64,000 nt of DNA, taken from contig CAZNYC010000001.1 in the NCBI GenBank assembly GCA_964577175.1, forward strand, positions 14,851 through 78,850, written 5' to 3'. The position numbers and the translations under genes were made by a program. The stretch comes from an uncultured Anaerolineales bacterium (GTDB lineage Bacteria; Planctomycetota; Phycisphaerae; FEN-1346). The notes below the pieces were generated by a model that was not told the origin of the DNA, did no database searches, and saw only the letters and a list, made by a program, of their open reading frames with translations. Shown one piece after another: positions 60,432 to 62,177 of the stretch (its first letter is position 1; every line of letters starts with the position of its first letter).

Positions 60432-60516
60432 CCGCCCACCGCCCGCAGAACCGTTCTCGCGCGGCGGGTCTCCCGGCCCGCCGCGCGTCTGGCTGACTTA
60501 CACGGTGTCACAGGCC

Positions 60517-60552
60517 AGAACGCACAAAGCCAATTCACGCTGCGAAAACAAG
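60517..60552. terminator. Perfect 10-bp inverted repeat (aagccaattc-N15-gaattggctt) between the convergent CoA-transferase/GNAT and helicase genes; possible bidirectional terminator
   Basis: Seen directly in the sequence. No strong U-tract. Confidence 0.3.
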
Positions 60553-60559
60553 AATTGGC

Positions 60560-62014
60560 TTACGATTCGCTCTCTGTAAGTCGCGTCATACGAAGTAGTT
60601 GTCGGTAGAACCGCACTACGTTTTCGTCACTTCTGACCTCAGTTTCACGAATCGGACGGGCGAGCCGGATATCGTCAAGCGACCGGGCTCGGCTCAGTGC
60701 GACGTAGACCTGACCCGGCGCGAACGCCCTTTGCCCCAAGTCCACAATGACCTTGGACAGGGTCTTACCTTGGGCTTTATGGATTGTGACAGCCCACGCT
60801 AGCATAAGTGGAAGCTGCGTGTATCGGCCCACAACCCGCGCAATGATTCGGTCCTCGGACGGGTCATACTCGTACCTGTACTTATCCCATGTAACGGGGG
60901 CAACCTCAAACGTGCCAGACACGCCGCCCTCTGTAACCTGTACCCATACCGTGCGGGCTTCGATCTGCGCCACCCGGCCCAACGTTCCGTTGACCCACCG
61001 CCTGTTCGAATCATTCTTCGTAAACATGACTTGAGCGCCTGCCTTGAGGGTAAGGTCCATAGGCGCTGGAAGCTTATGCTTACCAATACGGAACTCTCCG
61101 GTGATCCTCCCAACGTACGTCCGCGAGCGCGAGGGCAGATTCGACAACTCCTGCATATTGCGTGCATCTGCCGCGCGGTTCGTACAGGTGAGAACTACTC
61201 CACCGTCCTGTGCCGTGGCACTCGATACGCACCTTGCATTGATTATGCGCAGAGCTTCTGAAACGTTCTGTCCCTTGCGAAGGTCATCGAGCAACGCGAT
61301 GAAGTCCCGATCACGCTGGCGAAACACCCTGCGAAGCAAAATGGGTGCGAGTTGGCACTCGGCTATGCCTTTAGAACCGAAGAAGAAGTCCGTCGAGTAT
61401 CCCATGTTACGAAGCGCCAGCTGTTCATCTCGTGGCGTAACCGGGGGAAGCTGAAAGAGATCGCCGATCAACAGCACTTGCACGCCGCCGAACGGATCCC
61501 CGCTACCTCGGTTCATCCGAAGGAATTTGTCCACTCCATCCAAAACGTCGGGCCTCACCATTGACACCTCGTCAATGATGAGAAGCTCGAGCTTATTGTA
61601 AAGCCGGCGGTCGTAGACTCTCTTAACGTCCTCTGGTTGTATGACTTTTGGCGGCAGGTGAAACAACGAGTGGATTGTCACACCCCCCGCGTTCAGGGCC
61701 GCCACCCCTGTAGGCGCCACAATGGCCATCGGGCAGCGGAGAACATTCCGCAGATAGCGAATCAGCACCGTCTTCCCTGTGCCCGCTCCGCCCGTGATGA
61801 AGATCAGGGAAGCATTTGCTTCGACTAGAGCCTTCGTTTGTGTGTATTCGGGGACAACTTCAATGTCGCTAATGTCTTCGGACAGGGAGATGGACGTGGT
61901 GCCGTTACGCGCGGTTTGTTGCATCGGCGGAGGTGGAGCCACCTCAGCAGCAAGATCGCCTACCTTGACCGGCCTAAGCCCGAGGATTTGGCGTACTACG
62001 TCAATAATGGACAT
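60560..62014 (-). CDS. PIF1/RecD-like SF1B DNA helicase, within a low-GC island
   Basis: ATG at 62014 (MSIIDVV) with GGGGGA 4 nt upstream. Walker A FITGGAGTGKT. Walker B/motif II LLIIDEVSMV. Motif QLPPV. C-terminal HKAQGKT...ALSRA (motifs V-VI). Local GC ~52-55% against ~70% elsewhere. The ORF could extend to 62113. Confidence 0.75.
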   Translation of the reverse strand: MSIIDVVRQILGLRPVKVGDLAAEVAPPPPMQQTARNGTTSISLSEDISDIEVVPEYTQTKALVEANASLIFITGGAGTGKTVLIRYLRNVLRCPMAIVAPTGVAALNAGGVTIHSLFHLPPKVIQPEDVKRVYDRRLYNKLELLIIDEVSMVRPDVLDGVDKFLRMNRGSGDPFGGVQVLLIGDLFQLPPVTPRDEQLALRNMGYSTDFFFGSKGIAECQLAPILLRRVFRQRDRDFIALLDDLRKGQNVSEALRIINARCVSSATAQDGGVVLTCTNRAADARNMQELSNLPSRSRTYVGRITGEFRIGKHKLPAPMDLTLKAGAQVMFTKNDSNRRWVNGTLGRVAQIEARTVWVQVTEGGVSGTFEVAPVTWDKYRYEYDPSEDRIIARVVGRYTQLPLMLAWAVTIHKAQGKTLSKVIVDLGQRAFAPGQVYVALSRARSLDDIRLARPIRETEVRSDENVVRFYRQLLRMTRLTESES

Positions 62015-62177
62015 GATTCCCCCATCTTGGCCTACGCCCTCAGCATGCGTCTGTTGTTTGCCAATGCTGGTGCCGCGGTACCAGCGTAACTTCCAGCACA
62101 ACGGCTCGAACATGGTTTGCGTTAGCGCGGTGGGCCCGGCGATCCCCCGCGCGGAATGCGATTGTAACCTCTTGTCG

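Follow-up and report, generated by a model that had tools for sequence, protein, structure and literature searches.

The window studied here, a 64-kb stretch of DNA from an uncultured member of the Phycisphaerae (contig CAZNYC010000001.1), contains at positions 60432 to 62177 a region of low guanine plus cytosine (GC) content that is occupied by a single gene, which encodes a Pif1-family DNA helicase of superfamily 1B (SF1B) on the minus strand (60560 to 62014, 484 amino acids). This region very probably represents a recently acquired single-gene insertion of an intact Pif1 helicase gene. About 1.64 kb of foreign DNA (about 60488 to 62124), made of one Pif1 gene and its own terminator-like hairpin, occupies the spacer between two convergent native operons, which measures 3 to 14 nucleotides in outgroup relatives, and the insert lies between two host-type palindromes. 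The most likely routes of arrival would be an integrative element, comparable to the one that carries a 66%-identical homologue, followed by the loss of all else, or illegitimate or repetitive extragenic palindrome (REP)-associated recombination of transformed DNA at or near the palindromes.

Base composition and identity of the helicase gene

Positions 60432 to 62177 correspond exactly to the gap between the stop codons of two flanking genes that converge from the plus and minus strands. An earlier reading of the letters of this DNA (hereafter the original prediction) had proposed a drop in GC over about 1.7 kb with a 484-amino-acid helicase as the sole gene, and both proposals held: the only credible open reading frame (ORF) of the gap is that of the helicase, and the GC content in 300-nucleotide windows is 53–59% over 60450–62250, compared with 62–75% in the rest of the 54–64 kb interval. 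The dip was real, although the predicted 52–55% was slightly low, since the ORF itself measures 56.4% in a window of 69% GC overall. The 1.5-kb segment with the lowest GC of the whole 64 kb begins at 60501 (0.564, for a mean of 0.691 and a standard deviation of 0.030). The shift was greatest at the third codon positions of the helicase ORF, whose GC content (GC3) is 0.63, to be compared with 0.89±0.05 in the 24 other genes of the window (z = −5.1). The tetranucleotide spectrum of 60501–62000 correlates with that of the window with an r of 0.62, the minimum of the whole window, when the other segments give 0.93±0.045. Given the GC dip, the GC3 deviation and the tetranucleotide minimum, the compositional break is genuine and lies far outside local variance. 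The GC and tetranucleotide comparison called for in the original prediction thus singles out the helicase ORF as the strongest outlier in the 64 kb, beyond normal variance, and the composition of the helicase segment is not ameliorated to that of the host.

After the helicase segment, the composition departs most from that of the window at 36,750–41,000 (GC 63–67%, tetranucleotide r of 0.83–0.85). This segment encodes NqrF-like and Rnf/Nqr membrane subunits, together with a 127-amino-acid ORF (GC3 0.70) without a Pfam match, and its composition is probably due to membrane-protein bias and not to a foreign origin.

Judged on every sequence criterion, the predicted protein is a complete Pif1-family SF1B helicase. 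The Pfam PIF1 model (PF05970) matched it with 93.6 bits for a cut-off of 25.9 (E = 1.8e-26) and is annotated on all of the listed homologues (120/120); the other Pfam matches were overlapping AAA_19 and AAA_30, UvrD_C_2 and a weak Pif1_2B, and no WYL, nuclease, zinc-finger, HUH or other accessory domain was detected with Pfam. The Walker A (FITGGAGTGKT) and motif II (LLIIDEVSMV) sequences named in the original prediction are both present in the 484-amino-acid protein, and they belong to a complete motif set: GGAGTGKT (I), APTGVAALN (Ia), DEVSMV (II), GDLFQLPPV (III), VFRQ (IV), TIHKAQGKT (V) and GQVYVALSRAR (VI). These motifs were invariant or near-invariant in an alignment of 17 sequences (the window protein and 16 homologues, 48–68% identity). 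Between motifs II and III, Pif1 helicases carry a signature with the consensus D-x-x-D-x-x-x-R-x-x-R-x(4-5)-PFGG-I/V-Q; the corresponding region of the window protein, LDGVDKFLRMNRGSGDPFGGVQ, matches that of SsPif1 residue for residue and is conserved in the homologues. The best matches in the PDB were 8BNS (6.7e-97) and 8BNV (6.3e-95), over query residues 51–472, followed by ToPif1 and BaPif1 (about 1e-76), human and yeast PIF1 (about 1e-50) and the RecD2 structure 3E1S (1.7e-09). Pfam, motifs and solved-structure matches therefore all support the earlier proposal of a lone PIF1-like SF1B helicase.

The ATG at 62014, with the sequence GGGGGA just before it, was taken as the start codon; with the ATG at 62113, further upstream, the protein would have 517 amino acids. 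The shorter form is favoured because of this GGGGGA and because the homologues, which are 476–491 amino acids long and cover 99–100% of the 484-amino-acid form, align from residue 1. Residues 1–25 (62014–61940, minus strand) form a conserved N-terminal peptide, M-x-L-x-D-x-V-R-x-x-L-G-I-K-P-V-x-V-G-D/E-L, which is followed by a variable proline-rich linker and lies N-terminal to the part of the protein that matches the solved Pif1 cores. From the biochemistry of BaPif1, ToPif1 and TePif1 (and from PMC9964779 and PMC3113762), the protein would be a monomeric, ATP-driven 5'→3' translocase on single-stranded DNA, able to unwind forked duplexes, DNA–RNA hybrids and G-quadruplexes (G4), and it would work on its own in genome maintenance, as an accessory helicase.

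The 3' end of the gene overlaps a hairpin (60527–60561, minus strand) with a perfect 10-bp stem (AAGCCAAUUC/GAAUUGGCUU) and a 15-nucleotide loop; the hairpin overlaps the TAA stop codon and is followed by UUUGUGCGUU. The two arms are located at 60527–60536 (AAGCCAATTC) and 60552–60561 (GAATTGGCTT), and the coding-strand RNA folds into a hairpin of 10+4 bp ahead of the trailing sequence, with −22.6 kcal/mol and a z of −1.3 relative to shuffles. In the original prediction a perfect 10-bp inverted repeat at 60517–60552 was said to bound the island. The repeat does exist, although 10 nucleotides away from that position; since both arms are found on the same side of the island, over the stop codon of the helicase, it does not bound the island and is instead one local 3' hairpin, that is, a terminator-like element and not island termini. 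This hairpin was not conserved in the 3' flanks of the close homologues, each of which has unrelated hairpins after its stop codon, and no shared flanking non-coding sequence was found among these homologues.

The insertion site in related genomes

On the left, the helicase is flanked by a gene for an acetyl-CoA hydrolase/transferase–GNAT fusion (AcH-GNAT; 58506–60431, plus strand; assigned with Pfam, GC3 0.94), the last gene of an operon formed with a deacetylase and an ADP-forming acyl-CoA synthetase. On the right lies a tadC-like gene (62178–63167, minus strand; GC3 0.91) for a pilus platform protein with a Pfam T2SSF domain, and ahead of it in the same tad operon is a tadB-like gene (63295–63996). 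A search with this left-hand gene over one genome per species gave 80 Planctomycetota loci (L006–L085), four of which (L006, L007, L009 and L010) have AcH-GNAT convergent with tadC-tadB. The amino acid identity of AcH-GNAT is 95% in L006, 92% in L007 and 82% in both L009 and L010, and the tadC-like orthologues of the four loci are 71–90% identical.

No Pif1 gene or remnant was found at the slot in any of these four loci. The stop codons of AcH-GNAT and tadC are 3 nucleotides apart in L009 (11875–11877) and 14 nucleotides apart in L010 (11332–11345). The slot of L007 consists of 686 nucleotides of non-coding DNA (2246–2931), with tandem repeats of about 92 nucleotides and an AT-rich stretch (39% GC), and that of L006 holds the gene of a 442-amino-acid Gfo/Idh/MocA oxidoreductase with a twin-arginine signal (11265–12593, minus strand; 72% GC, host-like), which begins 4 nucleotides past the tadC stop codon. 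A search of the alternative spacers for traces of Pif1 and of the L006 oxidoreductase gave nothing at E <= 10 beyond noise, and the nucleotide homology between the window and its relatives ends at both flanking stop codons. Across the five related genomes, the AcH-GNAT/tadC spacer is a variable slot: near-empty in two, filled with repeats in one, and occupied by an oxidoreductase gene or by Pif1 in the others. Because there is no orthologue at this locus in the relatives, the acquisition would have occurred in the lineage of the window. The horizontal acquisition put forward in the original prediction is supported by the composition and by the Pif1-less locus of the four syntenic Phycisphaerae, two of them near-empty; its presence/absence comparison with close relatives was run on these genomes and gave no orthologous helicase at the same locus.

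Using the GC and tetranucleotide profiles, the end of homology and the bracketing palindromes, we arrived at 60488–62124 as the best estimate of the foreign low-GC segment (about 1.64 kb). It comprises the helicase gene, 72 nucleotides of 3' flank and about 110 nucleotides of 5' flank, and the first 55 nucleotides or so downstream of the AcH-GNAT stop codon are host-like, palindrome included. This left palindrome (60458–60487, CGCGCGGCGGG-N8-CCCGCCGCGCG) is REP-like, GC-rich and of host type, and starts 27 nucleotides past the AcH-GNAT stop codon. The right one (62125–62153, GCGCGGTGGG-N9-CCCCCGCGC), between the tadC stop codon and the helicase start, is a degenerate copy that aligns with the family and is 83% identical to the left palindrome over 29 nucleotides. 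The family, GCGCGGCGGG-N8-9-CCCGCCGCGC, has three perfect copies in the window (44495–44523, 49802–49829 and 60459–60486), all of them intergenic and at gene ends, for 0.00 expected, and it is also present in the equivalent slot of the related Phycisphaerae metagenome-assembled genome (MAG) L006 (11218–11245). These palindromes are likely to be bidirectional terminators or REP elements; the left one is probably the terminator of the AcH-GNAT operon and the left bracket of the insert, and the right one is probably the terminator of the tad operon and the right bracket.

We found no direct repeats of at least 8 nucleotides between the two borders, and 8-mer border repeats arise in about 38% of shuffles. 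A single inverted 9-mer links the borders, GCCCACCGC at 60434 and 62127, in the GC-rich border sequence associated with the palindromes: the copy at 62127 forms one arm of the right palindrome, and the copy at 60434 is located just upstream of the left one. Terminal repeats or a target duplication as island ends were consequently rejected, as this palindrome-associated 9-mer was all that was found. The tRNA scan of the 64-kb window was negative, and the Rfam scan gave no family, with one sub-threshold chance match outside the island.

Several other features of the window were recorded. The three-gene unit at 55221–60431 (histone-deacetylase-family protein, ADP-forming acyl-CoA synthetase and AcH-GNAT) is kept in at least 80 Planctomycetota genomes, which suggests a protein acetylation/deacetylation module tied to acetyl-CoA turnover; the window and about a dozen other loci, among them the closest relatives, have the deacetylase gene upstream, and most others have it downstream. 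The 127-nucleotide spacer between the tadB-like and tadC-like genes (63168–63294) contains the only nearby G4-type motif (63245–63266, minus strand) and a GC-rich hairpin, CTCTCCCGCCGCGGGAGAGGG. Across this spacer, spurious ORFs read '...SEAKDL...' and '...RFAQDDT...', which we take to resemble peptides from the dispersed intergenic repeats of many bacterial genomes. Further away, positions 107–17404 (plus strand) form a single ORF of 5765 amino acids (GC3 0.93) with FG-GAP, RTX calcium-binding, LRR, MAM-like, PKD and dockerin domains, whose product resembles an adhesin-type protein of giant size, either secreted or at the cell surface, and 20298–23438 (plus strand) encodes an unusual fusion of 1046 amino acids, radical SAM plus class I methyltransferase plus DUF5714.

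Surroundings of the homologues and alternative explanations

The helicase has thousands of homologues, the best of which, besides the source record itself (100%), is 68% identical. The labelled near matches belong to Verrucomicrobiota, Eisenbacteria, Fibrobacterota, Ignavibacteriales, Armatimonadota and Thermoleophilia, and none of the labelled near homologues bears a Planctomycetota label. In some homologues the helicase is joined to an Mrr, PD-(D/E)XK nuclease or topoisomerase zinc-ribbon domain. On the four long contigs, the homologue genes have 48–59% GC in hosts of 42–60%, above the host in one case and below it in another; this mismatch in both directions fits a gene moving between hosts.

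The 66% homologue, in a Verrucomicrobiota MAG (L001), adjoins a tyrosine integrase in an island of about 6 kb that lies between two copies of the first 540 nucleotides or so of rapA, 98% identical to each other (5386–5926 and 11843–12383). With an integrase and Pif1 between duplicated rapA 5' ends, this island is a textbook integrative element. Inside it, a segment of about 540 nucleotides is tandemly duplicated (9905–10987, 93–100% identity) and overlaps a Y1-transposase-like ORF. On the second long contig, the 65% homologue is found among small unknown genes and an integrase fragment, and the two remaining closest long-contig homologues have unremarkable contexts.

The neighbourhood survey covered 84 loci, namely 80 metagenome loci (39–66% identity) and the four long contigs, with clustering of 423 neighbours; a Pfam scan covered 150 neighbours within two genes on either side at about 60 of the 84 loci. 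Neither the all-against-all clustering nor the Pfam scan revealed a conserved partner gene. The commonest families among the 150 neighbours were PD-(D/E)XK nuclease (5) and HAD hydrolase (4), and the integrase family was seen once. The only large neighbour clusters (15 loci each) came from one clade of about 15–19 loci with ordinary stable synteny. Type ISP restriction enzymes are encoded within four genes of the helicase at 4 homologue loci, and ResIII-type proteins at 3. In the metagenomic L168–L186 clade (Pif1 45–48% identical), presumably of freshwater origin judging from the sample accessions, an FGE-sulfatase-like gene is upstream of the helicase and a gamma-glutamyltranspeptidase gene downstream, and in 6–7 loci a toxin–antitoxin-looking pair (AbrB/MazE and PemK/MazF) directly follows the helicase.

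Mobile and defence contexts are therefore a minority among the homologue loci examined. The earlier statement that stand-alone PIF1 helicases are frequent passengers of mobile or defence islands is weakly favoured by two of the four closest long-contig homologues (integrase or integrase fragment) and by the roughly seven Type ISP/ResIII loci, and disfavoured by the single integrase among 150 neighbours. The search in phage and integrative and conjugative element contexts that had been suggested with it did yield the integrase-bearing island of the 66% homologue, whereas the phage copies are at most 45% identical. The best identities were 39–45% for phage or viral contigs and 40% for plasmids, with cellular and metagenomic homologues reaching 68%, and a phage or plasmid origin was rejected since these values are well below those of the cellular homologues.

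Nothing in the analysis places the window copy itself in a mobile or defence island, the setting that the original prediction named as frequent for such helicases. No integrase or transposase was found beside it with Pfam, its neighbours being metabolic and pilus genes; among the usual traits of genomic islands, atypical composition and absence from the locus in relatives are present, and a mobility gene, a tRNA or an attachment (att) site with direct repeats were not found. With PADLOC-DB v2, the best match was PDC-S68 (58 bits, profile positions 612–745 of 1221), and all matches (PDC-S68, PDC-M16A, type IV RecD, Nhi and AbiO, models of 700–1270 amino acids) were partial and within the helicase core; neither a full-length defence match nor adjacent partner genes were found.

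How should such a solitary gene be explained? The most serious competitor of the single-gene insertion, although an unlikely one, is that a larger integrative or defence island inserted here and decayed until only the helicase was left, a protein that would once have worked for the element, and not for the host, in its replication, its mobilisation or its anti-phage activity. The integrase-bearing island with the duplicated rapA 5' end, the 65% homologue with its small hypothetical genes and integrase fragment, the Type ISP and ResIII-type neighbours, the Mrr and PD-(D/E)XK fusions of some homologues and the 1e-76 score of the Dda-like phage helicase PHROG 325 would all agree with it. However, the helicase gene fills the foreign DNA, which is only about 1.64 kb long and contains no pseudogene remnants, att repeats or tRNA, and an un-ameliorated composition points to a recent arrival that left little time for clean decay; the rarity of integrases among the near neighbours (1/150) and the weak, partial PADLOC matches (58 bits at most, to the helicase cores of much longer proteins) also speak against it. 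More doubtful still is a stand-alone anti-phage or anti-plasmid gene conferring single-protein accessory immunity. Such a role would suit an accessory, patchy and horizontally moving gene, weakly similar to the helicase parts of the five PADLOC models and found near restriction-modification genes in a minority of homologues, but the protein has no effector or nuclease domain and matches no full defence model, its neighbours here are metabolic and pilus genes, the surroundings of most homologues are housekeeping-like (including the clade with stable chromosomal synteny) and its closest solved relatives are ordinary bacterial Pif1 enzymes. We also considered, as highly improbable, that this cross-phylum subfamily is a self-spreading, recombinase-less single-gene cassette that enters palindromic terminator or REP-like sites between convergent genes, or else a stand-alone immunity gene. 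Integration of the cassette might be driven by the helicase itself or by a REP-associated recombinase of the host. The observations in favour of the cassette or of the immunity gene are limited to the palindromes on both sides of the insert and to the conservation of the subfamily across phyla: its members share the N-terminal peptide and a GC that stays roughly constant from host to host, and they are 48–68% identical between Verrucomicrobiota, Eisenbacteria, Ignavibacteriales, Fibrobacterota, Thermoleophilia and the Phycisphaerae bacterium of the window.

An ancient native gene lost from the relatives, with a low GC due to gene-specific constraint or normal variance, is very hard to reconcile with a GC3 that is 5 standard deviations below all the other genes, with a tetranucleotide signature at the extreme of the window, and with spacers of 3 and 14 nucleotides without remnant in L009 and L010, even if other parts of the window, such as the nqr genes at 37–41 kb (63–67%), are also lower in GC; at least three independent clean losses would be needed, and the labelled near homologues are all from outside the Planctomycetota. 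An assembly or binning chimera, which an abrupt composition change in a MAG could bring to mind, is the least credible explanation of all. Logan contigs from SRR7048227 and SRR7048220 match 60323–62313 (100%) and 60473–62360 (99.95%) and cross the junctions with the tadC and AcH-GNAT coding sequences; since these two independent assemblies jointly span both junctions, the insert is not an assembly artefact, and host-type palindromes are present inside the spacer on both sides.

Some points weigh against a recent single-gene insertion that provides an accessory maintenance helicase. At the insert we found neither a recombinase or an att site nor a target-site duplication or a terminal inverted repeat. 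The closest relative, L006, carries another gene in the slot, so that replacement and independent insertion are indistinguishable, and the absence of Pif1 in the relatives concerns this locus, as their genomes may carry a copy elsewhere. No sigma-70-like promoter was found in 62015–62177 upstream of the helicase, with a scan that may not suit Planctomycetota, and expression of the gene could rely on read-through from the tad operon. Canonical G4 motifs number 10 in the window, compared with 26.5±5.5 in shuffles; as they are depleted and not enriched, a host need for a G4 helicase was rejected, and a role on G-quadruplexes is taken from the family. Lastly, bacterial Pif1 has no generally established physiological role, and horizontal acquisition has been raised as a possibility (PMC3113762).

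Altogether, the acquisition of a single intact Pif1 gene remains our preferred explanation. As an instance of horizontal transfer of a gene from a well-known helicase family it is clear but ordinary, and it does not challenge current understanding. Its value is that of a clean, locus-resolved inter-phylum Pif1 transfer into a Planctomycetota genome, with empty-site relatives for comparison. The role of Pif1 in bacterial physiology is still open (PMC3113762), and natural pairs with and without the gene could help to test it.

Comparison with known helicases

The phage Dda-like/Pif1-like helicases (PHROG 325; Klebsiella, Bacteroides and crAss-like phages) belong to the same SF1B family (1e-76), and the window helicase matched 610 phage records, 503 of them over at least 80% of its length; however, the identity is only 27–45% and there are no phage genes near the window helicase. 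RecD and RecD2 have in common with the window protein the core from Walker A to motif III and the SH3-like 2B insert. An identity as RecD or RecD2 was rejected, as the NCBIfam models TIGR01448 (RecD2) and TIGR01447 (RecD) gave 77.7 and 54.9 bits for cut-offs of 500 and 310, respectively; the TraA model was also far below its cut-off, and recB and recC were not found among the neighbours of the window helicase. The Pif1-like helicase domain of Helitron RepHel (Helraiser) gave a partial match (7LCC, 2e-23) restricted to the C-terminal part, and a rolling-circle transposase of this type was rejected because the window protein is devoid of the HUH Rep nuclease domain.

The closest likeness is to the solved bacterial Pif1 enzymes. 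We compared SsPif1 (8BNS), DdPif1 (8BNV and 8BNX), Thermus oshimai ToPif1 (6S3E) and Bacteroides BaPif1/BsPif1 (5FHD and 5FTB), 8BNS and 8BNV being the Pif1 helicase cores of Sulfurihydrogenibium sp. and Deferribacter desulfuricans (PMC9964779). They share with the window protein the SF1B core with domains 1A, 2A and 2B (E from 1e-97 to 1e-75) and the same motifs, including the 2B/SH3-like segment. SsPif1, DdPif1 and TePif1 carry a C-terminal WYL domain (PMC9964779), which the window protein lacks; its core-only architecture is that of most mesophilic bacterial Pif1 (PMC9964779). The conserved N-terminal peptide, located outside the region aligned to the solved structures, is specific to the subfamily of the window protein.

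In their 2011 survey, Bochman, Judge and Zakian described solitary Pif1 genes scattered across bacterial phyla (PMC3113762). Compared with that survey, the acquisition is documented here at one locus, in a Phycisphaerae host, with empty-site relatives and an un-ameliorated composition.

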